The notes below the pieces were generated by a model. That model was not told where the DNA came from and did not search any database. It saw only the letters and a program-made list of their open reading frames with translations. This document shows, in pieces, positions 11,715 through 45,709 of a stretch of DNA of 64,000 bases. A program made the translations under genes and the position numbers. Source of the DNA: Candidatus Aminicenantes bacterium (GTDB lineage Bacteria; Acidobacteriota; Aminicenantia; Aminicenantales; JAFGBC01). Numbering within the stretch: position 1 is the stretch's first letter; each line of letters starts with the position of its first letter. Location: contig OY969696.1 in NCBI GenBank assembly GCA_963702005.1, positions 3,904,001 through 3,968,000 on the forward strand, read 5' to 3'.

Positions 11715-11807
11715 GTAATGATTTTATCAAATATCCGACGATCCGGCACTCTCAGATTATCTTGAGGCCCTCCTCGCGCCTCAACCAAGGGAGCGGGGGC
11801 GCTGCTA

Positions 11808-14661: not shown

Positions 14662-14718
14662 TTTCCGCAGCTCCTCTCGGCTGGGACAGCGAGGCCGCTT
14701 CCGTTATGACTAAAATCG

Positions 14719-20507: not shown

Positions 20508-20575
20508 GAAAAAATTATAAGCCAAAATTACTAAAAGTGACAATCGGCACGGATGAACCCGGCACCCGACCTCTG

Positions 20576-21301: not shown

Positions 21302-21435
21302 TCTATTACTGCCGTTCTTCAAGAAACAAAGAATATTGTAATTAAATCCAAACAAAAAGCAAATAAATCCATAACAATTCGCGCCGTCTACGATAAAAAA
21401 CATCGGAGAAAAAAATAGAGCTAGGCGGGAACGGG

Positions 21436-22881: not shown

Positions 22882-24541
22882 TTTCTAAAACGACTTCGCA
22901 GCGTTGTTTGAGACAGTCCGCATAGACCGTCACCGGCCCCGGGAAAGACAAGACACCGAGGACGCTATCGGGCTGGGAACAGGAAAAAAGCCAGGGGTCG
23001 AAGGTATCCTGCATGGGCATGATATAGCCATAAATGATGTTGTTGCCCGCCAGGTTCGTCAGAAAATGCGTTCCCTGGGTTCCATACATCCTGGTCTGCA
23101 GTCTTTTTTGATCCTCATTAAAGCCGCCTTGAATCATATACAGAAAATGACTGCCGTAGACTCCTCCGGTTAAGCTCTCCTCTTCCGGCAAAGGTTCCGA
23201 CCGTCCCTCCACATCCACTCCGTATTCGAAAATAGCCGCCGCCTGATCCACGTCTTTATACTCAACGAAGATGCCCCAGTCTTTGTTTCGGCTTCCGAGA
23301 CGGCCCGGCACAATCAAGATATATTTCTCGTTCCGGCTCGCCATGTCTTGGTTGATCTGGGCGATTTTCTTGCGGACGACGGGCTGGAACTCTTTCTTAT
23401 AAATAAACGGAGATACGACGAGCGCATGTTTGATGTTCCTTTTAATCCCATGTCCCTGGGCATTATTGATGGCGAGATAGGTATGAAGGACGGACGGGGG
23501 GATCTGGATGGAGTCCAACTTCAATTCAGGCAGCTGAGTCAACTGGACAATGTGAAAAGTCCCGTCTCCTTTGTCCTTCCTGGAAAAATCGAGGTTGAAG
23601 ACAAATTCGATCAGAAACTGAGAAGAGATACGAGAGGCGATGATCTCCATGATTTCCACGAGGCCTGTCTTGAATCCGAAATGGTTATTCTGGATGAGAT
23701 CTTCTATGGTGATGAGGTTGTTCCGGATTCCCAACAGCTTGATCTTATGGTAATTGGCGAACCGGACATGAAGCTTCTTCATGGTTTCCAGTTCTTCGCC
23801 CTTGAGCTCCCTATTTTTGGTCATGTCCAGAGCATAAAAAAATTGCTGGCCGCTTCCAATTCGCAAGAGACGGAGGGGGATAGGATTGGAGATCGTGGCC
23901 ATGGAGATAACGGGAAAATCGTCCAAGACGGTGGCATAGCCGTGTCCGAAAGCGATCCGGGCAAAGCCTTCGCTGGGATTCTGGTTCTTGAGGGCGTGCG
24001 GGAAGAAGGAAACGGCGACCCCGGAAATATAAGGATAATAAACGGGGCCGGCGTAGGTGTCATCGAATATTCCCGGAATGGGATTGATGACGATGGCCAT
24101 TTTCTCTCGGCTCGAGGCGGGTTGTTTCCTGAGAAAATCATTGTAGATATGGGTCACGGCTTGGATGACCTGAGAAAGTCTCACTTCAGGATCAGGGTGA
24201 TTGTTGGGCAGCATGAAGGACGCGTTCTCCCCGGCATGAATGGAACCTCCGGCCTGCGCCGTCGGACCCGCCTCATTTGTCGCGGAAGAGCGAATTCCCA
24301 AAGGAACGTCCGTCAATTCTCCAAGAATCGAGAGCACGACATTTTGTTCCTCGTCCCCAAATCTTCCGTCATTGGCGAGGAAACTATCAAAGAAGGAAGT
24401 GGTCAGGATATAGGTTTTCAACTTGCTGACCTTGGGAAGGGAAAGTTGGTTGATCTTAACGAGTCCGGCTCCCTTCCCGCCCAGAGAACCCGTCCCGTAG
24501 ATTTTGACAGCCTCGGCTATTTGGGCCATGGGAATATTCAT
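22874..24541 (-). CDS. Divergent PPDK-type ATP-grasp protein
   Basis: GSLGGKGAGL, GIRSSA, SGVAVS, IEFVF, PGRLGS; two His motifs YGSHFL and QGTHFL; several ATP-grasp residues altered. Confidence 0.7.
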   Translation of the reverse strand: MNIPMAQIAEAVKIYGTGSLGGKGAGLVKINQLSLPKVSKLKTYILTTSFFDSFLANDGRFGDEEQNVVLSILGELTDVPLGIRSSATNEAGPTAQAGGSIHAGENASFMLPNNHPDPEVRLSQVIQAVTHIYNDFLRKQPASSREKMAIVINPIPGIFDDTYAGPVYYPYISGVAVSFFPHALKNQNPSEGFARIAFGHGYATVLDDFPVISMATISNPIPLRLLRIGSGQQFFYALDMTKNRELKGEELETMKKLHVRFANYHKIKLLGIRNNLITIEDLIQNNHFGFKTGLVEIMEIIASRISSQFLIEFVFNLDFSRKDKGDGTFHIVQLTQLPELKLDSIQIPPSVLHTYLAINNAQGHGIKRNIKHALVVSPFIYKKEFQPVVRKKIAQINQDMASRNEKYILIVPGRLGSRNKDWGIFVEYKDVDQAAAIFEYGVDVEGRSEPLPEEESLTGGVYGSHFLYMIQGGFNEDQKRLQTRMYGTQGTHFLTNLAGNNIIYGYIMPMQDTFDPWLFSCSQPDSVLGVLSFPGPVTVYADCLKQRCEVVLENE

Positions 24542-24609: not shown

Positions 24610-24712
24610 CCTGCGGGGCCGCTCGCCGGCTTAATCCGGCCGGGCGTCAATGATGACCGATGCCGCTAGGAAGGGCGGCGGAATAGCGGTCGGGTGCAGC
24701 GCTTTGTTAGGT
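24610..24712 (-). other. Degenerate attC site
   Basis: R'' ACCTAAC overlaps the ADH stop and is followed by aaagcgctgcacccgac (L''-like) and a partial palindrome; no intact GTTRRRY R' box. Confidence 0.45.
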
Positions 24713-25684
24713 TTGGCTATTAGGTTCCAACGTTATTACAACATTTCCCGTTTTTTGACCTGTTTCGACATACCTAGTGGCCTGGATAATTTGTTCGAGT
24801 GGATAGCGTCTATCGATGACCGCTTTATACTTTCCCGCCTCGATAATCTCTTTGAAAAAGAGCACGTTTTCTTTGTTTTCCTTCGGAATCGCAATCATGA
24901 CTTTTTTACTGCCGATTTTTGCAGTCAACACTAGAAAGAAAAGGTTCTGCCATAAAAATCCCAGATCAGTTTCAAGATAGGCTCCGCCTTGCTTTAGAGA
25001 GTTTTTACAGCGTAAAAACGAATGCTTGCCGACTGCGTCAAAAATAACGTCATAGGTCAGACCATTCTTGGTAAAATCATCTTTTGTGTAATCAATGACT
25101 CGATCCGCTCCCAAAGATTTCACTGTTTCTACATTCTTGGTATTGCACACCGCCGTAACATCCGCTCCGAAGTACTTGGCAAGCTGTACCCCTGCAGTAC
25201 CTATAGACCCGGATGCTCCATAGATCAGGATTTTTTTTCCGCTCTGAATATTGACTTTTTTCAGGCAACTCAATGCAAGCGTTGCCCCATCGCAGACAGC
25301 AGCAGCTTCCTCGTAGGTCATATTGACCGGTTTTGTTGCGATAGCCCCTTCTTCCGGCAGGCATAAATACTCGGCATGAGCGCCAAAACTGTTGCCGGTC
25401 AACCCAAATACCTGATCGCCCTTTTTGAATGATTTGACATCCTTGCCGACCGCTTCGATTTCCCCGGCGAACTCGCTCCCCAGTATCGTTCTTCTCGGTC
25501 TGATGAGGCCGCTAAAAAATCTCACAATAAATGGCCTGGGCTTTCGAAATCCGCAGTCCGTTCGGTTGACCGTTGTCGCATGTATTTTTATCAGCAATTC
25601 ATTTTCATTGGGAGTCGGTTTTGCTATATCTTTGAGTTGAAGAACCTCCGGCGGTCCGTATCTTGTGTAGACAATCGCTTTCAT
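24707..25684 (-). CDS. NAD(P)-dependent MDR-family alcohol dehydrogenase/quinone oxidoreductase
   Basis: [39 protein letters not shown]. Confidence 0.9.
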
Positions 25685-25709
25685 GAGTATTTCTCCCAAG
25701 TTGCTTTAA

Positions 25710-26090
25710 TTATGATTGCTTTTTCTTTCCCTTCTCGATAACTTCCTTAACCCTAAATTTTGTAATCCTAGAAATGAGGCCATAAGGTATTGGTTTTTCA
25801 GGAGGAAACCTTATCGTTCCTTTCGATGTTTCATATGCTTCCAATTCCCTTTTAAATTTCTCTACGCCGCTAGACGTTGGAAAAAAGCTTATATGTTTGG
25901 AAAAAGCGGCAAAATGGACTAAATGGCCGCCGATCTTGAACGTTGGTATTTGGTAGCTTATCGCTTCTGTTGCGCCGGGTGCCGCTCTTTTTATCGTCGC
26001 TCTTATCTTTTGCAGGATCTCTTGAACATCATGCGGAAAGCCCGCGATGTATTCATCTATATTCTTGGGTGTTGATTGATCATTTTTCAT
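25710..26090 (-). CDS. DUF1801/YdhG-family protein
   Basis: IDEYI, ISYQIPTF, FAAFSKHI, SKGTIRFP. Confidence 0.85.
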   Translation of the reverse strand: MKNDQSTPKNIDEYIAGFPHDVQEILQKIRATIKRAAPGATEAISYQIPTFKIGGHLVHFAAFSKHISFFPTSSGVEKFKRELEAYETSKGTIRFPPEKPIPYGLISRITKFRVKEVIEKGKKKQS

Positions 26091-26141
26091 GCTTCCTCTC
26101 CGTTGTATCCTGAATAGCGGAGCTGTGATCGAGACCGTGTC

Positions 26142-27065
26142 TTATCTTCTCCGGTACACATCGGTGCTCAAGTACTTAAGGCCGGAGTCGGCTATCAGCG
26201 TGACCACCTTGGCATCGGGCCCGAGCCGCTCTGCGACTCGAATCGCGGCGACGACGTTCGCTCCGGAAGACGTCCCCGCGAAGAGGGCTTCCTCCCGCGC
26301 GATGCGCCTCGCCATGTCCTTCGCATCGTCCGTTCTGACCGCAAGGATGTCGTCCACGAGAGTCGGCTCCCAGAGTGGAGGAGTGTAGCCAATCCCAACT
26401 CCTTCGATCTGGTGAGGGCCCGCCTGCCCTCCCAGCAACACCGAGGATTCCGCGGGTTCGACGACGACGATCTTGATACTCGGTTTGTATCGTTTCAGCA
26501 CCGTGGCGACCCCACGCAAAGAAGCCGCCGTACCCGCGCAGTGAACGAAGGCGTCGATCTCCCCCTTCGTTTGACTCCAGATCTCCTCGCCCAGCGGGTA
26601 GTAACCCGCGATGCTGTCATGGTTGTTGAGTTGGTCGATCCAGTAGGTGTGAGGCTCTTGGCTCAACCCACGGGCGGCCTCGATCATGTCCAGGATCAGC
26701 TTCTTGGTGGTGAGGCCTCCCTCGCTCGGGACGAGCGTCAGCTCGGCGCCAAGCGCCGCCATCTGATCCAGCTTCTCCCGGCTGAACGCATCGGAGCTGA
26801 CGATCCGGAGACGGTAGCCTTTGGCGGCGCAGACTAATGCAAGCGATGCCCCTGTGCTGCCACCCGTGTACTCGACGACGGTGTCTCCGGGCTTTAGTCG
26901 GCCGTCCTCCTCCGCCCGCGAAATCACGGCCCGTGCCATCCGGTCCTTGAGGCTGCCGCTGGGATTCTCCCACTCGAGCTTCACGAAGATGTCCGCACAA
27001 TGGGGTGGAACAACCTTGCGAAGTCGAACTATCGATGTGTTTCCAATGGCATTGAGAATGTCCAT
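26142..27065 (-). CDS. Cysteine synthase family PLP enzyme
   Basis: IGNT, KLEWENPSGSLKDR, TGGSTG, HQIEGVG, GTSSGAN, DSGLKYLST. Confidence 0.9.
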   Translation of the reverse strand: MDILNAIGNTSIVRLRKVVPPHCADIFVKLEWENPSGSLKDRMARAVISRAEEDGRLKPGDTVVEYTGGSTGASLALVCAAKGYRLRIVSSDAFSREKLDQMAALGAELTLVPSEGGLTTKKLILDMIEAARGLSQEPHTYWIDQLNNHDSIAGYYPLGEEIWSQTKGEIDAFVHCAGTAASLRGVATVLKRYKPSIKIVVVEPAESSVLLGGQAGPHQIEGVGIGYTPPLWEPTLVDDILAVRTDDAKDMARRIAREEALFAGTSSGANVVAAIRVAERLGPDAKVVTLIADSGLKYLSTDVYRRR

Positions 27066-27112
27066 GGGTGGAACTCTCCCTCTACTGGTTGGTTTCCTCG
27101 ACGTGCGCAGTA

Positions 27113-27141
27113 TATATACTATGCAAGTAGCTCGGTGTCAA
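27113..27141 (-). promoter_or_regulatory. sigma70 promoter for the cysteine synthase-DUF1801-ADH block
   Basis: TTGACA-17 bp-TATATA on the minus strand. Confidence 0.65.
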
Positions 27142-27263
27142 AAAAGGCACCTCTCGATTCGTCAAACCGTACCGTGGAGAATTGGAAAGGGTCCTCTCAC
27201 CATGCTCGACGTATTCTCCTGATTCAACGTCAATTGAAGCAGGCAGACGACTTCTAAATCGTC

Positions 27264-27379
27264 CGCTAACACCGCGGATGAGCCGCGGGCACCAGCCAAG
27301 CGCGGCGGGTGCAGCGGCGAAGCCGCGATCTGCAGCCGCCGTGACAGGCAAGCCCGTCGGCTCCATACGCTTGTTAGAG
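27264..27379 (-). other. attC site (116 bp)
   Basis: Plus strand CGCTAAC ... gagccgcgggc ... gcccgtcggctc ... GTTAGAG, an imperfect palindrome just downstream of the 646-aa gene. Confidence 0.85.
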
Positions 27380-27396
27380 CGCGCCGTCGCGCAGGA

Positions 27397-29337
27397 TCAC
27401 TTGTCCTCACTCTCCTGAATCCCAAGCGAGCGCCGCATCTTGCGTTCAAAGGCCGATGCAAGTCTGACCTCGAGTGCTCTCTTGGCTGTCTTCAGGCTTG
27501 TTCCGAACACCAGATTCAACAGGCCGAACACTGCCGCAAAGCCCAGAGCGACAGGGAGAATCAGTCTCGCCCAACCAAAAGACAACTTGGGAAACGGCTC
27601 AGGCAGAGTCGCGTACGCTGCCGCAAGCAAGAGCGGGAAGACGATTCCCATCGCGGCCGTAGAGACGACGGCAGCCCTTCGTACTGAGATGGATCGGACT
27701 CGCTCGGCCAGTTGTCTCTGCTTCTCCTTTGCAGCGGCTACGTCCTGCTCCGCCTTGAGTCTCCTATCTCGCTCGGCTTGGGCCTTCCGCTCTGACTCGG
27801 CTCTGATCTCGGCTAGAGCCAAGGAAAGCACCTCGTCAGGCGTGCCCTCGACGAACGCCGCCGGATCGCCGGCAGTCACATCCATGAGCATGCGCCGAGC
27901 TTCAGTAGAGAACCGAAGCACCATGTAGTCATCGTCGCCGATAGTGCCTTCCTCCTGAAGCTGGCTGATCCGCGCGAGGTACTTGCGCCAGAGCGACTCA
28001 GACGGTTGGTAGGACGTATGGCATGACGCGATCAGACGCTTCCTCGGTAGCTCAGGCGCTCGCGTCGGCGACTTCAGCCAAGCAAGCGTTGCCAAGACAT
28101 GGTCGAGGACTGCCGGGGGCACGCTGGGCTGCTTCCTGGAGCCGCAGAAGAACTCTGCTCCGACCTGTGCCAATGCGGCATTGGAGGTGACGAAGATGGC
28201 CTTGCATGACTCCAGATCTCCTATGAGCCGTCCCCGTCTGATACGATGTATTGATGTAAGAGCGTCGATGTCGTGGTGGAGAGACTCGTCGTGCTTGTAC
28301 AGAATGCGCGCCCGAAGGGCCTTCTCCAGAGCGGCTTCATCAACGCCAAGGGGATTCTCGTGCTCAGGGCGCTGCTTGACCCTGATGCGACGACTGGAGA
28401 GAAGAGACGGTAGCTTGCCTATCTTCAGCTCCACACTGCTTGACGTAATCCCCTCTTTCAGTAGGAACTCGTCGAGTTCGAAGTGCGGGTCTCCCCTGGA
28501 CGGAGCCGACTTGAGAGCATGCGAGGTTGCGCTGAGTACTCTTCGAACCTCCTCGAGAGTCGAGTCGAAGCAGCAGAGCTGGGCATTCAGCTGGTAAAGG
28601 AGCTCGAGAAGCTCGATCGTTGGTGCCTGCAGAGCCGGTGTGGCCATGCCGATCGCCCTTAGAACTATGGGCGTGTCCAAGTACATCTGCACATCCTCGA
28701 ACCGCTGCTCGACCTCGCCGAGGTTCGGGTACAGAAGGACATTGGCCAGCATGCTACCTTTCACGATCATTTCGAGGTCCGAGAACAGCGTCGGCTCCTC
28801 TTCGCATATGTGCTGACTGAATGATGCTGCTAGGAAGGTGGCTCGACCCGACGCCGAATCTGGTAGTGCAAGTGGACTCCCCTCAACGACCGACATCAGG
28901 ATTGGAACAGACTGCCCTTCGACATATGAGAGAAGCGCCTCCTCTGCCGCTTCCCTAGATAGTTCGAGGCTGTGCTTCCTATGAACGTACGCGATGAAGG
29001 CATCAATCAGGGAGTTCACTCGGCGTAGGGCGGCTGCACGAGCATTGGATGTGTCGTACTTGGCGAGAGCATCCGGTAGTCTCAAGTAGACTCGGTTCTG
29101 AAGCTTGACCAGCCCTCGCTTGTAGGCCCGTCCCAGAATCGTCTTCAAGGCACCGAGCGGGATGTTGAATCCAAAGAGGACACGGACACCCTGCTGCAGC
29201 TGTCCCAAGGAAATCTGGTCCTGCGAGGCGTCCGACAGAGCCTCTGCGACGAAGGGCACGAAGCCCTCGATATAGTCGTGGCCGCGGTCCCAATTGACCT
29301 GCAGAATAGCGAGGCTCGCTAGTGCTCTGTCAGACAA
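27397..29337 (-). CDS. Integron cassette protein, 646 aa: PIN-like motifs, coiled coil and two C-terminal TM helices
   Basis: YLDTPIV, HDIDAL, FVTSN; hydrophobic C-terminal segments; bounded by an attI-like site and an attC. Confidence 0.65.
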   Translation of the reverse strand: MSDRALASLAILQVNWDRGHDYIEGFVPFVAEALSDASQDQISLGQLQQGVRVLFGFNIPLGALKTILGRAYKRGLVKLQNRVYLRLPDALAKYDTSNARAAALRRVNSLIDAFIAYVHRKHSLELSREAAEEALLSYVEGQSVPILMSVVEGSPLALPDSASGRATFLAASFSQHICEEEPTLFSDLEMIVKGSMLANVLLYPNLGEVEQRFEDVQMYLDTPIVLRAIGMATPALQAPTIELLELLYQLNAQLCCFDSTLEEVRRVLSATSHALKSAPSRGDPHFELDEFLLKEGITSSSVELKIGKLPSLLSSRRIRVKQRPEHENPLGVDEAALEKALRARILYKHDESLHHDIDALTSIHRIRRGRLIGDLESCKAIFVTSNAALAQVGAEFFCGSRKQPSVPPAVLDHVLATLAWLKSPTRAPELPRKRLIASCHTSYQPSESLWRKYLARISQLQEEGTIGDDDYMVLRFSTEARRMLMDVTAGDPAAFVEGTPDEVLSLALAEIRAESERKAQAERDRRLKAEQDVAAAKEKQRQLAERVRSISVRRAAVVSTAAMGIVFPLLLAAAYATLPEPFPKLSFGWARLILPVALGFAAVFGLLNLVFGTSLKTAKRALEVRLASAFERKMRRSLGIQESEDK

Positions 29338-29383
29338 CGTCTTGTCTCCTTCGAACGTGGAGCTCTTCGAATCTCAAGGCGCG

Positions 29384-29560
29384 CTCTAACAATAATTAGA
29401 TTGATCCGTATAAGATGCGGAGTTCCGGTTTTCTGTCCGTATAACATGCCATGGGATTTCTTGCCGAAGGCGCGGTAACCCGTTTGCATTCATTTGCTTG
29501 CCGCCTGTCCAGCGGTTCGGCGCGGCATCTTATATGGATCGACATAACACAACCTCCTTG
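29384..29560 (-). other. Second (orphan) attI-like region
   Basis: CTAA-6 bp-TTAG core with GTTAGAG crossover; block-wise homologous to 36585-36757. Confidence 0.7.
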
Positions 29561-29862
29561 AATGGTTTCGAAGCCCCCCATGAACATAGATATACTTTAT
29601 TACTCTGATTCGGAGGATGTCAAGAACCGGAAGCACAGACCAATAGTCACAGGAGCGCAGCTGAAGAGACCGCCCTGAGGAAATAATTATCAGAGCTTTA
29701 AACATGCCATGGACGACTTGTTGGACTGGTTAGGGACGGAGAAGGCAGGAATGACATCCTTATGAAAAATAAGGCAGGGCTTGAAGGCGAGCCGCATCTC
29801 GGCCTTAGTGACGCGGAGATCGATTTTTCTATTGACATTTCTATCGTCATTTGGCATGATAA

Positions 29863-31032
29863 TTGACGACTATGGCGACAGTACAACCTTCATCAGCAAC
29901 CTGGGTTCCCCGTCTGCTGGACCTGCCCGGCCTCATTGAGAAGCGATCTCACTTCCTATTCGGACCGCGGCAGACCGGCAAGACCTCTCTCGTCCGTCGT
30001 TCTCTCAAAGAGGCGAAGGTCTATGATCTCCTTGACACCTCGGTTTTCCTCGTCCTCAGCCGGAATCCCGGCCGAATCTCGGAAGAACTGGGACCCAGGG
30101 ATTCGATCGTGGTGATCGACGAGATCCAGCGTCTGCCGATCCTTTTAAACGAGGTGCATCGCTTGATCGAATCGAGGGGTGTGCGGTTCTTGCTGACGGG
30201 ATCGAGCGCCCGGAAGCTCCGGCGCGGCGGCATCAATCTGCTCGGCGGGCGAGCCCGGATAAAAAAACTTCACCCGCTAACTTGGAAAGAGCTGGGAGAC
30301 CGATTCGACCTGGGCCGGGCGATGGATAGAGGACTGCTCCCATCGATCTACTTTTCGGATGATCCCCGAGCCGATCTCCTGGCTTATGCCGGGACGTACC
30401 TGCAACAGGAGATCATTGCGGAAGGCACGGTCCGCAACGTGCCCGCGTTCAGCCGGTTCCTGAAAGTCGCCGCGCACTGCAACGCGACCGTCGTGAACTT
30501 CACCAACGTGGCCAACGACGCCCAAGTGGCCCGGACGACCGTCTATGAATATTTCGAAATTCTGAAAGATACGCTCGTTTTACATGAGCTTCCTGCCTGG
30601 AGGAAGACGAAAAAAAGGAAGCCGTTTGCCTCGTCGAAATATTATTTCTTTGACGTGGGCGTCGCGGGATCGCTCCAGGGAAGAGCGTTCAGGCCGGGGA
30701 CACCCGAATTCGGCGAGGCCTTCGAAACTTTTCTCATGCATGAGCTTTCCAGCCATGCGGATTATGTGTCCGGGGAAGCGCTCGGTTACTGGCGTTCGAA
30801 ATCCGGTTTCGAGGTGGATTTCATCCTGGGAGACCATACGGCCGTGGAAGCTAAAGCCAAGGAGAATGTGTCGCCCCAGGATTTGAGGTCTCTTCGGGCG
30901 TTGGCCGAAGAGAAGATGCTCAAGCGTTATCTCTGCGTCTCCCTGGAGCGCCGCCCCCGGACCGTGGAAGGCGTCACCGTCCTTCCGTTCAAGACATTTC
31001 TGGAAGCCCTCTGGGCTGGGGAATACCTATAG
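29863..31032 (+). CDS. AAA_14 ATPase with DUF4143 C-terminal domain
   Basis: GPRQTGKT, IDEIQ, LTGSS, KYYFFDVG, YWRS..EVDF..EAK. Confidence 0.9.
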   Translation: MTTMATVQPSSATWVPRLLDLPGLIEKRSHFLFGPRQTGKTSLVRRSLKEAKVYDLLDTSVFLVLSRNPGRISEELGPRDSIVVIDEIQRLPILLNEVHRLIESRGVRFLLTGSSARKLRRGGINLLGGRARIKKLHPLTWKELGDRFDLGRAMDRGLLPSIYFSDDPRADLLAYAGTYLQQEIIAEGTVRNVPAFSRFLKVAAHCNATVVNFTNVANDAQVARTTVYEYFEILKDTLVLHELPAWRKTKKRKPFASSKYYFFDVGVAGSLQGRAFRPGTPEFGEAFETFLMHELSSHADYVSGEALGYWRSKSGFEVDFILGDHTAVEAKAKENVSPQDLRSLRALAEEKMLKRYLCVSLERRPRTVEGVTVLPFKTFLEALWAGEYL

Positions 31033-31310
31033 GAAATTAGCGGAATGGGTTTTTGGCTCCTGCCAATAGTCTAGATCATAATCGGTCGTGTTAAACACTC
31101 GGACCCACATCTCTTGGCTGAGAAAGCCGCCAAAGTTCTTGGTGAAGCCTGCTCCGGTCAAATCATCGACTCCCCGGCCTGAAGGCCGGGGCTTGTTCAT
31201 GATTAACCCTGAGCCTCGCTCTCATCCCCGCCTTGAAAGGCGGGGCTTGGCGTCGGCGAAAGGGTCAACAGGTAACGGTTGGCCGCATTCAAGCTTGAAC
31301 TCAACTCCAA
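31027..31310 (-). pseudogene. Truncated SIR2-like cassette gene interrupted by the MITE
   Basis: Removing 31161-31267 restores ..NAANRYLLTGAGFTKNFGGFLSQEMWVRVFN.. directly after the attC R' box. Confidence 0.65.
31157..31267. mobile_element. Palindromic MITE/PATE-like element, copy 3
   Basis: GTCA at 31157-60 and 31264-67 (107 bp apart); hairpins CCCCGGCCTGAAGGCCGGGG and CCCCGCCTTGAAAGGCGGGG. Confidence 0.85.
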
Positions 31311-31366
31311 TCTAACGCCATGATGAGCCGCGACTGTAAGGAGTCGGCTCCACCAATTCGTTAGCC
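31310..31366 (-). other. attC site (57 bp)
   Basis: ATCTAAC..gagccg cgactgtaaggagt cggctc..GTTAGCC next to the DUF262 gene stop. Confidence 0.85.
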
Positions 31367-31367
31367 A

Positions 31368-32615
31368 TTATTCGTCTTCGTCTTGAGCCACTTCGTTTTC
31401 CGATAGAGGCTCAATCTTTCTTCTCCCATGAATTAGGTCATGGCAGTCGGGGCATAGAACCATTATGTTTTCCTGTTTCGTCTTGCCACCCTCGGAGTAT
31501 AGCTGTTTGTGATGGTACTCTGCTTCCCGGTGATTCTTGAATTTCCGAGAGCACATTTCGCACGTATGATGGATTGCAAAGAGAGCGATCTTTTCCTCAT
31601 CGGGTATTTGTCTCTTGTCATCCAGTTCCAGAACTTTGTGCTTGTTGAGAAATTCCTTGATCAGAATATCCCGGCGCAACGCGACTATCTTTTCCGTCCA
31701 GCCGCCCCGGACGTTGTCATAGAACCGCTGATAGTCGGTTTTTGATCTGCGAAAATCTTCGTTGTAAACCTTGCCATGGAAGTCTTGAACAAAGGCGAGC
31801 ACATTGCTTTCTTGGCCTACGAGGGAATAGCCCACCTGTAACTCCCTGATCATTGTGTAGACGGCGAGCACCCATGCGTGTTTCTCGAAACAGCTATACG
31901 GCCCGTTTTCGGCAGGAAAGCATTTTTCGAGATAGTTGAGCACGCGGGTGGCGGCCTTGTATTCCGGGGAGGCATCGCCAAGCGTTTTTTGATCATCAAA
32001 GAAGGTGTGCAGTTCGTTTGTGCCACATTGACGGGCTTTATACTTCTCGTAAAAGAGTATCCGGGCTGCATCTGGATATATACCGTACCGATTTTTTGCA
32101 ACAGCTGTTGATTTCGCCAAGAACGGATGGTGTGCTATTGAGCGCATGCTTTGGACGATTTCTCCAGGCTTGGCATTAAGACGCTCTCCTATCTGCAACG
32201 GTTTTCCACGCTGAAGTCTCGAAAATATAAGCCGAACGCGTTCATCGTCGTAATCTTCCATTATGTGGAAAGTAAGGGGGTAGTTCAAGAATTGCGTTTT
32301 CTGGTCATCATCCAGCGGGTTTTCGCCATTGAATGTTTTACCCCGATTGGCTAACCCTGAGAATCTCTCGCTCAGTTTTACTTTGTTGTCATAGAAGTTG
32401 GATATGCAATTGAGACGCTGTTGCCCATCCACGATATAAAAGACCCTCTTTGCCGAATCGAAGTTGAGAAAGAAAATGGGAATCGGCTCTCCGCGCAGAA
32501 TTGTATCTATGAAGCACTGATTGTCCTCATGCGACCAAGCGTCGCTCGGCCTTTGATACGTACGGTCGACTTTGTACTTGTTGCGATCATTGATGTATTG
32601 TTGGATGTTTGGCAT
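31368..32615 (-). CDS. DUF262 (GmrS/ParB-like) + HNH endonuclease cassette protein
   Basis: YQRP, VDGQQRL, FSRLQ; C-terminal CEMC..HH..GG...N..LCPDCH. Confidence 0.85.
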   Translation of the reverse strand: MPNIQQYINDRNKYKVDRTYQRPSDAWSHEDNQCFIDTILRGEPIPIFFLNFDSAKRVFYIVDGQQRLNCISNFYDNKVKLSERFSGLANRGKTFNGENPLDDDQKTQFLNYPLTFHIMEDYDDERVRLIFSRLQRGKPLQIGERLNAKPGEIVQSMRSIAHHPFLAKSTAVAKNRYGIYPDAARILFYEKYKARQCGTNELHTFFDDQKTLGDASPEYKAATRVLNYLEKCFPAENGPYSCFEKHAWVLAVYTMIRELQVGYSLVGQESNVLAFVQDFHGKVYNEDFRRSKTDYQRFYDNVRGGWTEKIVALRRDILIKEFLNKHKVLELDDKRQIPDEEKIALFAIHHTCEMCSRKFKNHREAEYHHKQLYSEGGKTKQENIMVLCPDCHDLIHGRRKIEPLSENEVAQDEDE

Positions 32616-32634
32616 TCCTCACCTCTTTTTCTAT

Positions 32635-32694
32635 GACTAACGTCACGGATTAGCGGCGCGGCTTGTCCGCGTCCGCTGCATGCGATTGTTAGCC
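32635..32694 (-). other. attC site (60 bp)
   Basis: GACTAAC..agcggcgcgg cttgt ccgcgtccgct..GTTAGCC; R'' overlaps the upstream gene's TAA. Confidence 0.85.
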
Positions 32695-33603
32695 CTCTTC
32701 TTCTGTTTCATCATTTCCGGGAGCGCTGGCTATGAAACTCAAACCGCTCGCTGATAACTTTGATGAAAACTCTTTTCGCGCCTTTGCAAGTGTCTGAAAG
32801 TAATTGCGGAATGCGTCGGACTGACTCTTTGCCCATGCTTGAGACTTGGGCAGTGGCACAACAATTTCTCGGTAGCGGGAGCCGCAGTCCTCGCGGTTGG
32901 TTTGCATAAGCGCGATGCGACGCCATTGATTTCTTACCGCACTGAGACACAAGGCCCAAAAGAGGTAGAAGGGGTCCCAAACAGAGGCGTCAACAACGCG
33001 AAACACAAACATCTCCTTGGTAAGAACAGCTTGTTCTTCGCCCGGCACAATGATTGCGAACTCGCCTATGTTACTGCTCGCCCGGTTGGGCGTCAGAACA
33101 TCCCATGCACGCAGTCCGCTACTCTTGCCGCGCCAGAACCTCTCGGCAACCTTGGTGGTAACGAGGTTCGTGGGATTGATGTTCATGCGCATGGCGCGGA
33201 TATCAGAAACCTTGATGTAGGGGATTGTTCCCGCTCTTTGGTCGTTTCCCGGACTTCCGTGTCCGCCTCGGACGGTGAGAATCTTTGCGTCAAGAAGTGC
33301 TCCAAGCGTGATCCCCTCCGTGCCGAGGTCGCGAAGCGTTTCCCGTATGGGATGATTATAACGGTCATCGTAGTATGTCGGGACAATAACGCCGGTTGTA
33401 AAGACAACCGACTCCTTCACATCGAACCGACAGGTTGATGCCGATCCGTCAACATACGCGTCAACGGCCGCAATCAGTTCATTGTCAACCTCTTCCGTCC
33501 GCTTGCCTGTCGCCGGGTCGGTCTTGTACCGGATGCCGCCACTCTTGTATATCCCGCAGGTCTTAGGGTTCAGGAACGTTACCTTGTGCTGTTTTGTGCT
33601 CAT
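32689..33603 (-). CDS. RM specificity (TRD/HsdS-like) subunit
   Basis: GHGSP, IPYIKVSDI, DVLT..R, DPFYLFWAL, EIVVPLP; ATGA-coupled to the methylase. Confidence 0.7.
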   Translation of the reverse strand: MSTKQHKVTFLNPKTCGIYKSGGIRYKTDPATGKRTEEVDNELIAAVDAYVDGSASTCRFDVKESVVFTTGVIVPTYYDDRYNHPIRETLRDLGTEGITLGALLDAKILTVRGGHGSPGNDQRAGTIPYIKVSDIRAMRMNINPTNLVTTKVAERFWRGKSSGLRAWDVLTPNRASSNIGEFAIIVPGEEQAVLTKEMFVFRVVDASVWDPFYLFWALCLSAVRNQWRRIALMQTNREDCGSRYREIVVPLPKSQAWAKSQSDAFRNYFQTLAKARKEFSSKLSASGLSFIASAPGNDETEEEG

Positions 33604-35231
33604 GGTCGCGTGGACACCTTCTCAAATACATAAAAGTTCGTCTTGGCTCGGCAAAAACCTTGGAATGCCTCCATCGGGATGTTTGCAACAACCACAGGGC
33701 GGAGCCTGGGTTTAATCCATTCAGTCACGAAACTATAGTTCGGGGAGAAGAAGTATGTTTCTGGCAGAACAATCCCAACCCGACCCCCCTTCCTCAATAA
33801 TTGGTAGGCCCGTTGCAAAAACAACAGCCCTATCTCCAAGTCTCGGAATCCGCCATCCTCCTGAGCAGCTATCGTGAGATTGGAGAGACGACTGTCTTTC
33901 GCAGAGACTTTCAGATTCTTTCCGAATGGAGGATTGGTCAAGACGACGGAAAATCGTCCATCTCTGAACGTGCCTGATGACAGATGCGGGAAATCAGTAG
34001 CCCACTTGTGCGTGCGCACAGAGTCGCCACGAGCGCAGTGAGCCGAGCCATCCCCGGCGATTTGCATAATGGCCTTTGTCAGTTTTAGGCCGATGGCGTC
34101 TTTCTCGATTCCAAAGATGTGAGTCTGAGACCATTTGGAAAGGCCGGAGTCAGTCATCTTGGGGAAACGTCGTTTCATTTCAATCATGCTCTGCACAAGA
34201 AAGCCGCCAGTTCCACATGCCGGATCGATTACGATATCTGATTGTTCAAGTCTCATGAGGCGGACTCCAGCCTCGATTACCGCTTGGGGAGTGAAATACT
34301 GGCCTTCTCCCTGTTTCAGTGCTTCGCTGCGAAGCACCTGAAAGGCCACGGCAACCGAGGCCATGCCCATATCCAGCAAACGGAGACCTGATAAAGCGTC
34401 AACACATGCTGTTATTGTGTCGTCGGATAGGCGAAGCCTCTTGTCGTTGTCCGTGGTGAAGGTCTCGGGATAGACGTCGGCCAGGTTCTCGAATGCCTCG
34501 CGCACAGCGGCGGCAGTCTTTTTCGCTGATTCCATTCGCCGGAAGATGACCGCACTTTCAGGGTCAGACTTGCCCTGTTTATCGCTCTCCAGTTTGATCA
34601 AGAGAAGATTGCAGAGCTGGTCGAGTTGTTCTTCCCGACGCGTTACCACGGTGTCGGATATCACAACCTTGTCCAAAAGATCAGAAATGACTTTGCGGAA
34701 TATCTGCTCGGTTGGTTCGACCAAGTCAGAATAAGTTGTTGTTTGGATATCTGGAGCAATCGGGTCGCCAGGCCGGGGCAGCTTGTCCAGTTCAAGTCGT
34801 TTAAGCAGCAGTCTGCCATCTGGACTGCGGTATAGGAATGCGCCTTTGGCTGATGCCTCGGGAGTGTTAACCCAGACACCAAGACTCGCGTGCGGCTCGC
34901 CAACGAAATAGCTCTCCAGTTGATTGACGCCCGCCTTCTCGTTCGGTTGTTTACATTCAACAATGAAGAGTAGGTGATTGGGGTCTCCGCGGTGGATTTC
35001 CCCATCGAACACGGCGATATCCACAGGAAAGCCAGCGAAGCTCTGGCCCTTCTCCCGCTTTGTGGCTTCAGATGGCGTCTTCGGAATTCGCCACTCTGTC
35101 TTTCCGAAGATCATCTGCCCAACTTTCCACCCTCGCGAGACGAGTAGGTTTACCAGTGGACCAACGACGCCGTACTGTTCCTTGGTCTCCTTAAGGACGG
35201 AGACAACGTGTTCTTTGTAGTCGTACTTCAT
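33600..35231 (-). CDS. Restriction endonuclease-N6-adenine methyltransferase fusion (Type IIB/IIG-like)
   Basis: N-terminal PVDIA..IVECK PD-(D/E)xK; GQYFTP, DPACGTGGFL, TNPPFG, GIVLP. Confidence 0.85.
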   Translation of the reverse strand: MKYDYKEHVVSVLKETKEQYGVVGPLVNLLVSRGWKVGQMIFGKTEWRIPKTPSEATKREKGQSFAGFPVDIAVFDGEIHRGDPNHLLFIVECKQPNEKAGVNQLESYFVGEPHASLGVWVNTPEASAKGAFLYRSPDGRLLLKRLELDKLPRPGDPIAPDIQTTTYSDLVEPTEQIFRKVISDLLDKVVISDTVVTRREEQLDQLCNLLLIKLESDKQGKSDPESAVIFRRMESAKKTAAAVREAFENLADVYPETFTTDNDKRLRLSDDTITACVDALSGLRLLDMGMASVAVAFQVLRSEALKQGEGQYFTPQAVIEAGVRLMRLEQSDIVIDPACGTGGFLVQSMIEMKRRFPKMTDSGLSKWSQTHIFGIEKDAIGLKLTKAIMQIAGDGSAHCARGDSVRTHKWATDFPHLSSGTFRDGRFSVVLTNPPFGKNLKVSAKDSRLSNLTIAAQEDGGFRDLEIGLLFLQRAYQLLRKGGRVGIVLPETYFFSPNYSFVTEWIKPRLRPVVVANIPMEAFQGFCRAKTNFYVFEKVSTRP

Positions 35232-35283
35232 GATCTCCTACACTCATCATCTTGGCACGCATGCATCGGTGTCATTCTCTCCG

Positions 35284-35355
35284 GGCTAACGTCAGGGTTG
35301 ACCGGCGGGGGAACCGCTCGGCGGTTCACCCGTACGGTCCGACCCTTGGTTCGCC
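35284..35355 (-). other. attC site (72 bp)
   Basis: GGCTAAC..gggttgaccg..gaaccgctcggcggttc..cggtccgaccc..GTTCGCC. Confidence 0.85.
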
Positions 35356-36572
35356 CCTACAGTCTGAATGACTTTATACGCAGCTATCCAGACCGCGAAT
35401 GACCGTGACGGCAACCGGAACATCCCCTTCTTCCCCGGCATGGGAAGAAGAATGTGCTTCTTCGTCAGAGTGTGAAGTGCATTGCTTATGGTCCCCGTCT
35501 TCAGGCCCGATCGCTTAGTAATCTCCCCCCGCGACATGTATTGTTCGGGATTTACAGCTATCACTTGGAGCACCTTTCGGTAGTCATCCGAGTAGATTTC
35601 GCCCGTGTACATGTTCTCGAAGTAGCGCATGCCGAGTTGATGGAGCGCGCCGTTCTCTTTGGTCAGCCCAACGGCGACGTCAGTGCGAGAGATGACATTA
35701 TCCGTGTCGGTCTCGAACGCTGAGTATCCGTACTGCTGGATGAAGTGTGGATAACCTTCCGAGACGTTGACGAGGAGTTCGAGGGCATCAGCTTCGATGG
35801 CGGTTGGGAATCCATTCTTCTCCGCAGCTTCGTCAAGTGCCGACGAGAAAACGCTCCTTCGCTCTTCCGGTGCGAGAGGCCCTAATTCGAATGGCTGAAA
35901 GATGCGGACCGAGGACTCATGACTCTTCCTTAGCTTGCCAAGAACCTCAGTAATGCCGACCAGACCAAATGCCGTGTTGCCGCAACCTCTCTTTGCCAAT
36001 CTCTCGGTAAGCACCTTCATGCACTCTCCGAGATTAGCATGCGCCGGGGCCTTGTCGGCTTCGTCAATGAACACGAAGATTCCGGAACCGCGTTCCTTAA
36101 GGCGTGCGGCCACCGCTATCATCTTCTCTGCAAGCTCCTCAACGAGAACCTCCGGGCGGAGTTCCTCTTTGTTGTACTTGACGCCAAAGACCTCCCACCG
36201 CGTCAGAAACTCCCATAGATCCGATAGAGACTTCCGGACAGCCTCGCTTCGGTCAAGCGTCCTAGTGAACTCTCGTGCAATCTTCGCCGTCAACTCGGTG
36301 TAGGTGTCAGATGGCTCAAGCTCCACGTTGACTGTGAGTATGTCCAGCTTGCTGCCGTCCAGAGTCGGGATCGTCCCTCGTGCCACATTGTCCAGGAGAA
36401 ACAACAGAGAGGACTTGCCTATCCCGCGTTCACCATGGATCAAAAAACTTGTCGGGTTTCCGTTAACCGTCTGGAAGAATGCGTTCTCAATTGCGCGTAT
36501 CTCCGGGATGCGGCCGTGAAACATTCCTGGGTGGATGATTGACCCTGGCTTGAACGGGTTGTATTTCGGCAT
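35292..36572 (-). CDS. First cassette: AAA/STAND-like P-loop ATPase with a C-terminal winged helix
   Basis: YNPF.PG, GERGIGKS, FIDEAD, GYPHFIQ; SD AGGAGG before the ATG at 36572; stop codon lies inside the attC. Confidence 0.8.
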   Translation of the reverse strand: MPKYNPFKPGSIIHPGMFHGRIPEIRAIENAFFQTVNGNPTSFLIHGERGIGKSSLLFLLDNVARGTIPTLDGSKLDILTVNVELEPSDTYTELTAKIAREFTRTLDRSEAVRKSLSDLWEFLTRWEVFGVKYNKEELRPEVLVEELAEKMIAVAARLKERGSGIFVFIDEADKAPAHANLGECMKVLTERLAKRGCGNTAFGLVGITEVLGKLRKSHESSVRIFQPFELGPLAPEERRSVFSSALDEAAEKNGFPTAIEADALELLVNVSEGYPHFIQQYGYSAFETDTDNVISRTDVAVGLTKENGALHQLGMRYFENMYTGEIYSDDYRKVLQVIAVNPEQYMSRGEITKRSGLKTGTISNALHTLTKKHILLPMPGKKGMFRLPSRSFAVWIAAYKVIQTVGANQGSDRTGEPPSGSPAGQP

Positions 36573-36584
36573 CTGTATCCTCCT

Positions 36585-36757
36585 GGCTAACATATATTAG
36601 ATGGATCCGCATAAGATGCAATAATCTTGTATGTTGTCCGTATAAGACACCTTCCGATTTCTTGCCGAAGAGCCGAAAATACTCTCCTTTCAACGACTTG
36701 CTGCCCATCCGGCCATTTATTTCGGCATGTTATGCGGATCGGCATAAAACCTCCCTT
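36585..36757 (-). other. attI region at the 3' end of intI (inverted integron)
   Basis: Minus strand ATCTAATATAT-GTTAGCC core directly before the first cassette; repeated TCCGYATAA motifs. Confidence 0.75.
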
Positions 36758-37270
36758 TTAAAGCTCGTCCACCGGGCTGCGAACGCCGGCCGGTCCGCGG
36801 TTGAGGACATGGGTATATATCATCGTTGTTTTGACGTCGCTATGGCCTAAGAGTTCCTGGACCGTCCGGATGTCGTAACCGCCTTCGAGCAAGTGGGTGG
36901 CGAAGGAATATCGGAAGGTGTGGCAAGTGGCCCGTTTCGTTAGACCTGCCTTCGTAACAGCATCTCTAACGGCTTTCTGAACGAGTGATTCGTCAACGTG
37001 ATGGCGACCTTGTTCCTTTGTCTCGGGATTGATCCTCCGGTTTTCCTGGGGAAAAACCCATTGCCAGCGCCATTCCGCGGGCGCGTTGGGATATTTCCGG
37101 TCCAAGGCGTTAGGCATCGCTACGCGTTCCCAACCCTCGGCCAAGTCGCGTTCATGAATGGTCTTCACACGCTTGAGGTGGTCTTGAAGCGGCGATTTGA
37201 GCGAGTCGGGAAGCATCGTGTTAACGAAGACGACTTCCTGTCTTGTCTGTAAATATCCCCCCGCCAACAT
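36758..37270 (-). pseudogene. intI: Integron integrase, N-terminally truncated
   Basis: Integron-specific insertion [19 protein letters not shown], then [34 protein letters not shown]. Homology starts only at TMLP (~37219), so box I Arg is missing. Confidence 0.9.
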
Positions 37271-37364
37271 AGATAAAGGTTATCACGCTGATTCAAAAAA
37301 TGTCAAGATTTTATAGCTTGCGAGCGGGCAAGGACGGCTAAGTACCGAGGCGACAAGAAGCTTC

Positions 37365-39797
37365 CTACGTTTCCTCGATCAGGCCGACTTCGCGCCAATG
37401 GCCCGACAGCTTCTCGACCCGGATCGTCTTGACCTCGAACGGCTTGAAGGCGAACCGCATCTCGGCTTTGGGCTCGCGGAGATCGATCTCGGCCGCCGTC
37501 TCGATCCCGCACGCTTCCTGGAGCCTGAGGATGAGGGCCTCTCCTTCCCAGGCTTTTTTGCAGGCCAGGAGGCGGATGTTCAACGGCCTGACCGATAGAA
37601 ATTCCTCAACCCCGGCCGAACCCTCGCCGAAAGGAAGATGAGCATAGGCCACCGGAGGAGCGGCCAAATGATCGGCCAACCCGGGCATCATCCGCCGGAG
37701 GTCCTCGGGATCTCCCGCCGTGACGAGGAGTCGGACGTCGTGGGCGCCGAGGTCGGCGTACTTGGGAGACGGAGAATCGCCGAGCTTGAACCCGCGCTCA
37801 TGGCAGTAGGCCGCGCTCCGCAGGACCGAAAGGCGAAGCTCACCCCCCGCGAAGTCGAGCCCGTGCTGGCCGCTCGAGGCGACGCCGAGCCCGGCGCGCC
37901 GTCCTCCGACGGTTCCTTGCAGCAGGCACCAGCGGCCGTGGACATGCTCCTCGCCGTCGGCCGGCCGGAGGATGGCGCCGGCCGGAACCTCGCAGAAGAG
38001 ATCCCCGGCCTTGAAGACCGTCGGGACGCGCAATTTGAGGCGCTTCTGCTCCTCGTTCCAAAGAATCCGGAGTCGGACCTCGAGGACGGGCCAGCCTTGC
38101 CAAGAGCAGATGTCCACGGTCAGCCGGCTCCGTTTGTGGACGAGGACGGATTGGACGATCGTCCGGACGGGGCCTTTGGCCGACGTCTTAGGAAGGCCCT
38201 TGAGCTTGAACCGGCCGGCGACTTCCCGGTAGCTGGTGCGCCCCGTCCCCCAGGAATCGGCCGGGTCGTTGATAACGAGGGGCTCGAAAAGAGGGCCGGC
38301 CAGACATTCATCGCCCGCCGCGGTCTTGAGCGATCCGACCAGCCCGCGCCGCCGGTCATACTTGAACTTGAGGCCGGGCTTGGCGCTCCGCTCCTGCCTG
38401 GGGCCCGAAACGGCCAGAAGGTGGTAGCGCGAAACGCCCGCCCCGGGAAGCTCGTCGAGGAAACTGACCTTGCGGCGCCAGCCGTTGAAGGGAAGGAGCG
38501 ATTCCGGCTGCTCTTCCTGACAGGGGACTTCGCCGCCGTCCATCCGCATAAGCTTGAGGTGCCATTCGCCCGACCAGAACGGGCGGTAGTCGACCATGCT
38601 CTCGACCTCGACCGGGACTCGGGTCAAAGCCGCGTTCGTGTTCAAGAGCGTGACCGGGAGGCTGGGGCTCTCCTTGTCGCCGCGGTTGAGGGCGGCCGCC
38701 GCGGCCAGCCGGACGCGGCGGGCGGCCTCGGCGGCCCGGCCGTAGATGTCCAGGGCGTCCTGTTCGGCCGGCTCCGTGCAGCTCCCGGTGATGACGTCGT
38801 GGAAGTCATTGAAGAGATGGTCGCGCCAGGCGGCCCTGAGTTCGGCTTCGGGGAAACTCTCGTTCTTGCGCAACCAGGCCCAGGCAGCGAGCGCCTCGGC
38901 TTGGACGAGCCGGCCCAGGCTTTTGACGGCTCGCCGTTTGACCCGGCTCAACAACGTATAGCATCCCGTGAACACCCGCTGGAGATCGCCGACGACCACG
39001 GGTGCCGCGGCCGCGAAGTCCTTGAGGGCCGCGTAGAGCTTGTCGGGCGTGCTGTGGATGACGCGGACTCTCTGCTCCCTGGCGATGAAATCGTCGATGA
39101 TCTTGAGGTCCTCGCGGGTCGCCCCGCCGCCGTGGTTCCCCAAGCCCCAAAAAATGGGTACGTCGCGGCCGAGCTTGAGCGCCAGCCCGGTCCCCTCCTC
39201 GAGCCGCCGGCGGATGTTGTCGCGCTCGGTATGGTAGAGGCCGACGCTGATCCGGTAGGTCAGGATCTCGCTCCCGTCCACCCCCTGCCAGCGGTAGAGA
39301 TCGGCGGGAAGCGCGAGCTCGTCCGGCTGGGGCCGCATGTGGATGTACATCTCGTAGCCGGCCTCGCGGAGGAGCTGGGGCAGGCCGCCGCTATGGCCGA
39401 AGGAGTCGAAGTTGTAAGCGACGCGAGGGTGGGCCCGGAACCGCTCCCGGAAATAGCGGCGGCCCTCGGCGATCTGGCGGACGAGGGATTCCGTGCCCGG
39501 GAGGTTGAGGTCGGGCTGCAAGAACCAGCCGCCGCTTACGACCCAGCGTCCCCTGGCCGTCAGGTCCTGGATTTTCCGGAAAAGAGACGGATCGAGCTTC
39601 TCGACCCATTGGTAGAGGACGGCTTCGTTGTGATTGAAGATGAGCCCCGGGTGCTCGCGGAGAAGCCGGACCGCGGTCCGGAAGGTGGCCAGGGCCTCGG
39701 ACGCCCCTTCCTCCCAGCGCCACTGCCAGACGGGGTCGAGGTGAGCGCTGCAGATGAGGTGGACCGTGGGCTTGTTCATTTGATCGGGCTCACCCAT
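37365..39797 (-). CDS. Glycoside hydrolase family 38 (alpha-mannosidase-like)
   Basis: AHLDPVWQW, DSFGH, GNHGGG, FHDVITG, LSVLRS. Confidence 0.9.
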   Translation of the reverse strand: MGEPDQMNKPTVHLICSAHLDPVWQWRWEEGASEALATFRTAVRLLREHPGLIFNHNEAVLYQWVEKLDPSLFRKIQDLTARGRWVVSGGWFLQPDLNLPGTESLVRQIAEGRRYFRERFRAHPRVAYNFDSFGHSGGLPQLLREAGYEMYIHMRPQPDELALPADLYRWQGVDGSEILTYRISVGLYHTERDNIRRRLEEGTGLALKLGRDVPIFWGLGNHGGGATREDLKIIDDFIAREQRVRVIHSTPDKLYAALKDFAAAAPVVVGDLQRVFTGCYTLLSRVKRRAVKSLGRLVQAEALAAWAWLRKNESFPEAELRAAWRDHLFNDFHDVITGSCTEPAEQDALDIYGRAAEAARRVRLAAAAALNRGDKESPSLPVTLLNTNAALTRVPVEVESMVDYRPFWSGEWHLKLMRMDGGEVPCQEEQPESLLPFNGWRRKVSFLDELPGAGVSRYHLLAVSGPRQERSAKPGLKFKYDRRRGLVGSLKTAAGDECLAGPLFEPLVINDPADSWGTGRTSYREVAGRFKLKGLPKTSAKGPVRTIVQSVLVHKRSRLTVDICSWQGWPVLEVRLRILWNEEQKRLKLRVPTVFKAGDLFCEVPAGAILRPADGEEHVHGRWCLLQGTVGGRRAGLGVASSGQHGLDFAGGELRLSVLRSAAYCHERGFKLGDSPSPKYADLGAHDVRLLVTAGDPEDLRRMMPGLADHLAAPPVAYAHLPFGEGSAGVEEFLSVRPLNIRLLACKKAWEGEALILRLQEACGIETAAEIDLREPKAEMRFAFKPFEVKTIRVEKLSGHWREVGLIEET

Positions 39798-45361: not shown

Positions 45362-45390
45362 ATTATGCTTTCCGCCTCGGGGAGAGTCAA
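45362..45390 (-). promoter_or_regulatory. sigma70 promoter of the SBBP gene; its -35 box coincides with the MITE target site
   Basis: TTGACT-17 bp-CATAAT. Confidence 0.55.
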
Positions 45391-45645: not shown

Positions 45646-45709
45646 ACGGCCCGCCTTAACAACCCGTCGAAAACATGCTACAATAGCGTTCCCAAAGGAA
45701 CGTAAGATT

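Follow-up and report, generated by a model that had tools for sequence, protein, structure and literature searches.

Integrons with an inverted integrase, described from Treponema denticola and, with a putative attI downstream of intI, from archaea, have their integrase gene (intI) transcribed toward the recombination site attI and the cassettes, with attI lying right after the intI stop and semi-conserved across phyla (PMC3607928, PMC4889954, PMC9668308). The group is paraphyletic (PMC4889954), one attI per integron is stated (PMC3607928), and attI sites outside classes 1–3 are unmodelled (PMC4889954, PMC9024848), in agreement with the remark, made in an earlier sequence-only reading of the DNA studied here, that detection tools do not model such sites. 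Here we describe an integron locus of a Candidatus Aminicenantes bacterium in a stretch of 64,000 nucleotides of contig OY969696.1 (positions 3,904,001 to 3,968,000; the window), which shares this layout, with intI upstream of and co-oriented with the cassettes, but in which both integrases are deleted and two attI platforms stand in tandem. The account that we consider probable is that these are two co-oriented integrons in tandem, each integrase-deleted, with their cassettes now near the intI promoter (PintI).

Three further systems share features with this locus. In Shewanella prophage M16-3, home to a cluster of attC sites that has no integron integrase (CALIN) but is headed by an attI, an attI stands at the start of a complete integron's array and also of an intI-less one within the same element (PMC9892861); that element has an intact IntI and near-identical Shewanella-type attI sites, whereas the platforms described here are 67–69% identical, have no active integrase and each keep PintI. 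The delta-attI-type and attI1-ORF-attI1 (ORF, open reading frame) cassettes of class 1 and 2 integrons also place an attI inside the array, usable as a downstream recombination site: IntI1 excises attI1-ORF-attI1 at 100% and attC-ORF-delta-attI at 20–80%, and most cases are short attI fragments replacing attC, full attI1 repeats being reported as rare as IntI1 removes them (PMC12901181). By contrast, the internal platform of the window is complete, has its own promoter and lies after an intact attC. In the chromosomal integrons of Xanthomonas, intI has been inactivated repeatedly, in some cases by large deletions, and the arrays have been kept (10.1101/2025.06.18.660453); the integron sits there mostly at one ancestral locus, with no tandem attI noted in the available portion of that source, whereas the co-oriented layout of the window lets a deletion bring PintI up to attI. 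The literature thus covers inverted integrons, intI decay, one attI-headed CALIN and attI pieces in clinical arrays (including PMC12614218 and PMC9892861). Each ingredient has a precedent, and we found no account of this attI family, of a promoter-to-attI fusion or of recurrent tandem platforms, in a search whose scope left out subscription journals and a comparison with the archaeal attI alignment of PMC9668308 (Fig. S2), which may overlap with our motif; the family and the recurrent tandem layout are apparently undescribed.

Two attI platforms and their deleted integrases

After a GH38 alpha-mannosidase gene and a short intI, the minus strand of the window carries a platform of 170 bp with three cassettes; a repeat and a DUF4143 ATPase gene on the opposite strand come next, and then a second platform with one cassette, beyond which lie three more genes. 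intI (37270–36758) and every cassette gene lie on this strand, with the cassettes downstream of intI, as the sequence-only reading had it. Its claim of a diverged homolog of the post-intI region near 29384–29560 also held on pairwise alignment, self-BLAST of the window joining 29386–29557 to 36587–36754 at 68.6% identity over 172 bp (E 6e-10). The two co-oriented attI platforms, A (36587–36757) and B (29386–29567), each head minus-strand cassettes, and a gapped motif built from them matches A and B alone in the 64 kb, with two or more matches in 0 of 100 shuffles. Their homology runs further than had been claimed, taking in the promoter and intI start (29574–29625 against 37257–37308, 77% identity) and 47 bp of the GH38 gene.

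Platform A is flanked on its left by the GH38 gene (37365–39797, minus strand; Pfam PF01074/PF09261/PF07748), several homologs of which, at 54–62% identity, come from Ca. Aminicenantes. Next to it lies PintI-A (37257–37308, minus strand), a sigma70-like promoter block that ends in the intI start codon at 37270, falls below the threshold of our promoter scan and would probably give a leaderless transcript. The intI-A ORF (36758–37270, minus strand) encodes 170 aa of integron-integrase type, being 90% identical over 153 aa to 344-aa integron integrases and matching TIGR02249 (E 1.7e-71), of which it covers profile positions 163–315, below the cut-off. Only residues 192–344 of IntI are found in the window by tblastn at a significant E-value, fused in frame to 17 N-terminal codons. 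Because a full-length relative (P0029) starts with the same 15 residues as this ORF, the start residue excepted, the gene carries an in-frame internal deletion of about codons 18–191, not a 5′ truncation, and the conserved block before the ORF is therefore the native intI promoter region. The deletion removes the N-terminal domain together with the GLR and GKGAK motifs, which in tyrosine recombinases carry the catalytic Arg and Lys. Three near-invariant positions are altered as well (G>E, W>R and H>Y), conserved in 119–120 of the 120 best longer IntI relatives (H in 119; lengths 301–461 aa, commonest 344). Judged by its sequence, intI-A is nonfunctional: of the intI-bearing integron proposed at A, the intI-type gene is present, but the internal deletion has left it without a full-length, catalytically intact product. 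The deletion joint (37225–37219) comes after a palindromic GTTAAC, which holds the crossover triplet on both strands, possibly by chance. Adjoining intI, attI-A comprises a palindromic box (36747–36730), repeat boxes (36645–36636 and 36615–36604), an L-like box (36602–36596) and a putative crossover G|TT at 36591/36590, the roles of the boxes being assigned by analogy with the attI1 layout in PMC12901181.

At B, the same promoter block (PintI-B, 29574–29625, minus strand) contains a −35/−10 pair, with the −35 at 29623 and the −10 ending at 29594, and an ATG at 29587, the same offset as A's. About five first codons, position-matched to the start of intI-A, are joined via a G run to the last two codons and stop region of an intI (29568–29587, minus strand). 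The sequence after the G run can be aligned with the end of intI in two related loci (L097 and L101), taking in the last codons, the stop and the spacer, the commonest IntI C-terminus among relatives ends in GL, and the stop-like sequence lies as far from attI as in relatives. From these short matches we infer that site B once had its own intI. The earlier statement that no intI lies beside B is right in that no gene is left there, but both ends of the deleted one persist; the suggestion that two integrons had fused and one had lost its integrase likewise gains from these fossil 5′ and 3′ ends behind the same promoter, but A's integrase is dead too. attI-B consists of boxes at 29547–29530, 29444–29435 and 29414–29403, an L-like box at 29401–29395 and a predicted crossover G|TT at 29390/29389. 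Starting at the fossil ATG, a frame of about 64 codons (29587–29393, read by eye) stays open across attI-B as far as a stop within the L-like box; it might link translation to that of the first cassette, or it may be a chance feature.

Beyond PintI-B there is a relic, 47 bp long, of the GH38 gene's 3′ part (29778–29824, minus strand; 87% identical to 37441–37487, E 7e-9), whose peptide closely resembles, among 40 C-termini compared, only the window protein and its four closest homologs. This fragment makes the left flank of B homologous to that of A, and the order of GH38 piece, promoter and attI is identical at the two sites, with similar spacing. We also considered the 47-bp repeat as the attL/attR of an island and rejected this, as B does not run on into the GH38 C-terminus and there is no island integrase. 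That B is a recent copy of A is disfavoured, although an approximately unbiased (AU) test does not reject it: the best match of attI-B is L097 (85%), and attI-A, at 66.5%, ranks only 31st of 113 among its matches.

Between A and B the boxes and promoter are kept while the spacers have diverged. This argues against an explanation that we regard as unlikely, in which all cassettes were caught while each integron had its own intI, the platforms have since decayed neutrally as inert fossils and the tandem is accidental; the changes at near-invariant residues of intI-A would fit such decay. Under the account of two integrase-deleted integrons that we favour, A and B would represent two distinct integrons, co-oriented (“inverted”) and belonging to a single widespread family, that lie in tandem at one locus of the chromosome. 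The sequence shows that each intI was lost by a deletion inside the gene, between its first codons and its 3′ end, of about codons 18–191 at A and of nearly everything at B, and that at both sites the intI promoter now points into attI and its cassettes. Since intI faces attI in this family, such a deletion would turn PintI into a close cassette promoter, and defence-type cargo could stay expressed as shuffling stops. A second copy of the locus (GH38 3′ end, PintI, attI and array), an old duplicate or one from a relative, would have been joined to the first; the tandem would persist because no local IntI excises DNA between same-orientation att sites, and further cassette traffic would need IntI in trans.

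Cassettes of the two arrays

The cassettes are closed by four attC sites, which fold as bottom-strand hairpins (z −4.3, −3.6, −1.9 and −6.4). All four were found by our own detector, which combines a position weight matrix with folding and replaced earlier energy-only and strict-rule scans, each of which missed two of the four. Cassette A1 (35284–36590; this and the following cassettes are on the minus strand) holds an AAA ATPase gene (Pfam AAA_16) and an attC at 35355–35284 (z −4.3); a homolog at 24% identity lies downstream of an attI in L047. Cassette A2 (32635–35289) carries an N6 DNA methyltransferase gene (35231–33600), a specificity-subunit-like gene (33603–32689) and an attC at 32694–32635 (z −3.6). 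Cassette A3 (31310–32640) has a GmrSD_N/HNH nuclease gene (32615–31368) and an attC at 31366–31310 (z −1.9, detector score 31) whose fold is weak, 8 of 200 shuffles being as good. Cassette B1 (27264–29389) encodes a 646-aa protein (29337–27397) ahead of an attC at 27379–27264 (z −6.4). This protein has no Pfam, NCBIfam or PADLOC match; it belongs to a widespread unnamed family, with Atlas clusters of 74–284 members at 0.97, and has a homolog at 22% identity just downstream of attI in L037, which makes it a candidate defence gene by context. The cargo is largely restriction-modification or defence-like.

Array B continues, after this one cassette with a full attC, into a tail of three genes, cysteine-synthase-like, DUF1801 and zinc-binding oxidoreductase (24693–27269, minus strand), closed by a half attC at 24712 of which only the left half is present (z −0.6). 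The tail start matches the R″ of this half site over only 5 nt, so the cassette status of the tail is uncertain; an array ending in a half attC would also fit neutral decay. Cassettes appear to have entered A and B by normal attC x attI recombination. Array B alone, with one full attC and an intI fragment 7.4 kb away, does not qualify as a CALIN (at least two attC and no nearby intI), and a distance-based integron tool would probably merge the two arrays because that fragment is so close.

Related attI sites in other genomes

A motif scan of species-representative genomes returned at least 118 stretches; locus counts from here on are among the matches listed. Three stretches (L031, L074 and L106) were dropped for lack of a match to the attI profile and one (L088) as a duplicate of L009, leaving at least 116 attI sites in at least 112 loci of 17 named phyla (52 Nitrospirota). 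Every intI match beside the motif is co-oriented with it and typically ends 170–180 bp before the G|TT, which identifies the motif as the attI region of this family; the distance from the intI stop to the motif is 170–180 bp in all 4 of the near-full cases. Joins to cassette ends fall at the GTT of the motif. The search that had been proposed earlier, for intI-free copies heading arrays, found them at many loci. At the 62 sites with at least 1.5 kb upstream, intI is near-full at 4, a fragment at 18 (one of these being the second site of L003, credited with the first site's fragment), reduced to its last codons at 7 and absent at 33, so that 58 of 62 lack a near-full gene. This share is probably inflated by assembly bias: intact relatives lie mostly on few-kb contigs, which tend to drop out of genome bins, and the proportions are further biased by the use of listed matches only and of a motif built from A and B. 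Among the four near-full genes, L059 reads through, L033 carries 9 extra residues in frame near the C-terminal catalytic region, L013 is interrupted by two internal stops and L058 is spread across three frames. The intI deletions of related sites, internal or 5′, are of many kinds and end 170–180 bp before the G|TT.

At 7 of the 58 non-full sites (L003 counting twice) a strict promoter pattern is present no more than 150 bp upstream of the remnant, where control windows lead one to expect 0.3. The PintI block also precedes an intI-less site in another Ca. Aminicenantes locus (L027), with 31 of 40 positions shared; the next best of 2092 TTGAC sites shares 24. Predicted attC sites (score at least 30) lie within 3 kb downstream at 16 of 27 intI-less sites and upstream at 5 of 27, a comparison that is partly circular, since the detector was trained on 47 downstream matches from the same loci; at its low threshold the hits in 1.03 Mb numbered 144 in the real sequence, 39 after shuffling and 89 on the opposite strand. 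A more independent check that intI-less sites head cassettes is the match of the first-cassette start to its own R″. Such a match extends over at least 7 nt at 10 of the 20 intI-less sites and at 9 of 14 intI-linked ones, where shuffles lead one to expect 1.8 and 1.1.

The 13-nt complement pointed out earlier in cassette B1 is present (start at 29390, R″ flank 27385–27373), and we considered it as proof of use in trans and rejected it in that role. Matches of at least 11 nt occur in 9 of 44 related first cassettes, including some beside near-full intI (L058 and L059), so that the 13 nt of B1 are ordinary and undated; they show that an intact cassette circle entered at the G|TT, and give no date.

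Searches of plasmids by tblastn were dominated by class 1 IntI, and blastn of attI-A gave one weak match (E 0.5); two plasmid loci (L001 and L002) match neither the motif nor the attI profile. The GH38 gene is absent from all fetched loci, as are the flank genes (DUF1801, cysK-like and PEP-utilising), and what the locus looked like ancestrally is therefore not readable from them. Four pairs (L019/L100, L013/L046, L012/L050 and L021/L070) come, as titled, from the same genome on different contigs, indicating several platforms at separate loci.

Several observations weigh against the reading of A and B as two integrase-deleted integrons. The promoter, binding and recombination roles of PintI and attI are read from sequence, the search for an intact intI covered the 64-kb window and not the rest of the host genome, and the fossil intI-B is called from about 20 bp. 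The strict promoter pattern is not seen at 51 of the 58 non-full sites, and the four sites with near-full intI have flanks too short for a statistical link between tandem arrangement and intI loss. The 150 bp between the GH38 relic and PintI-B are without clear homology to A, which calls for a further event. A tree of 114 platforms places A and B apart, but forcing them together is not rejected (p-AU 0.278), so B may be an old duplicate or a copy from a relative.

Tandem platforms and the segment between the arrays

Apart from the window, 17 loci have 2–4 platforms according to the profile search (12 of the 53 loci that reach at least 8 kb), among them the complete genome of Ca. Nitrospira defluvii (L009). 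All 23 of the 23 extra copies are co-oriented; intact intI occurs in 0 of the 17 tandem loci and short 3′ fragments in three. This recurrence bears on the idea that the window is an assembly chimera, two strains' versions of the locus having been joined at a dispersed hairpin repeat between the arrays (31157–31267, strand unassigned; related copies near 6290–6465, 10061–10181 and 45386–45657). The repeat is multi-copy and A and B do look like versions of one locus, but the contig on which the GH38 protein of the window is recorded has 4.31 Mb, the divergence between A and B is too great for a mis-join through each other, and the same layout is found in the 17 other loci; we regard a chimera as highly improbable, and it would not undo the intI-less state of B. 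The repeat, present in at least four places, has no Rfam match, nor does Rfam match anything else in the window; it may resemble IS200/IS605-type ends.

Different first cassettes stand behind shared intI-free upstream junctions in L037/L077, L081/L100, L098/L104, L053/L102 and L039 (twice) with L110, and within the loci L016 and L079. A Nitrospira-type group of 13 intI-free sites, most of which form one clade of the tree, has one left junction and no first-cassette gene in common, and near-identical tandem platforms carry different cassettes in L047 (96.5%), L039 (91%) and L016 (88.5%). The junctions suggest capture after integrase loss, for which they are the strongest evidence here, and servicing by IntI in trans, as drawn from these related genomes and not from this locus; homologous recombination between conserved platforms could also swap cassettes. 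They also count against inert fossils, for which speak the loss of the GTT in 7 extra copies and the reported stability of Xanthomonas arrays after intI inactivation (10.1101/2025.06.18.660453).

In L009 (11495–11835), L024, L030, L045 and L062 the last attC is succeeded by a conserved spacer, about 110 bp long, that runs straight into the next attI to form a repeated unit of about 284 bp. The spacer also comes after the terminal attC in L029, L054, L061 and L070; its two halves end in short related motifs, maybe of another repeat or recombination system. In the window, the bases after attC-A3 (31315–31308) form a perfect 8-bp inverted repeat of the attI-B L box (29403–29396), so that a circle of 31315–29390 would have a palindromic simple site; the same start is seen at 1 of 76 other attC ends, as noticed after the fact. 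The geometry from attC (31316) to attI-B (29390) would by analogy permit excision of the segment by IntI, as shown in PMC12901181 for IntI1 substrates only. The segment is not a delta-attI cassette, in which an attI fragment replaces attC, as it holds an opposite-strand gene and a whole promoter-plus-attI platform.

These observations leave room for a possible, though on balance doubtful, explanation that extends and overlaps the account of two integrase-deleted integrons: a non-autonomous mini-integron, in which a mobile promoter-attI module is excised between attC and attI-B by an IntI from elsewhere and inserted into other arrays, so that tandems grow as circles carrying a whole attI insert and stay in use in trans. 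The attC ends 281–291 bp before the next attI in the five loci where the spacer leads into one (L024 with a score of 25, below the cut-off of 30), the 13 intI-free sites with one left junction and the near-identical tandem platforms would all be expected, as would the 8-bp inverted repeat; attI-ended cassettes are moreover mobile in class 1 and 2 integrons (PMC12901181). However, the 1.9-kb segment of the window has chromosomal-looking relics (the GH38 piece and the DUF4143 gene), no similar unit occurs among the fetched loci, no IntI source was identified, complementarity of the L box to the array end is not general in other loci (by eye), and homologous recombination between platforms would account for the cassette swaps too. 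A cross-phylum class of such elements, compact promoter-attI modules that express cassettes, are loaded in trans and are copied as attI-ended circles, is accordingly something that we raise tentatively.

The gene within the segment (29863–31032, plus strand) encodes an AAA_14/DUF4143 ATPase, has a promoter-like site at 29832–29860 and is not a cassette. L075 has a homolog (10972–11750) in the same relative layout as at site B, placed upstream of an attI with an intI fragment and oriented opposite to it. Directly downstream of array B is a lower-GC block (11808–24541) with two divergent glutamate-dehydrogenase-family genes, two PPDK_N-domain genes (one with a C-terminal nucleotidyltransferase domain), a metallophosphoesterase and a response regulator, and further out (5253–10170) lie two tandem paralogous pairs, each of a redoxin gene (plus strand) and a URO-D-family gene (minus strand), about 70% identical in parts.

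An attI family definable by sequence across 17 phyla provides a detector for the capture site itself, and makes it testable whether integrase-less arrays are dead or serviced in trans. That an intI promoter can become a cassette promoter suggests a possible reason why co-oriented integrons tolerate integrase loss. If the mini-integron class were real, single cassettes in the arrays built this way would each come with an attI and a promoter of their own, and many of the CALINs known from Nitrospirota, Desulfobacterota, Planctomycetota and Aminicenantes would have to be seen as live sites of capture and not as integrons that are broken. Many environmental bacteria carry enzyme-less, often repeated docks, which may still be loaded by an enzyme made elsewhere.

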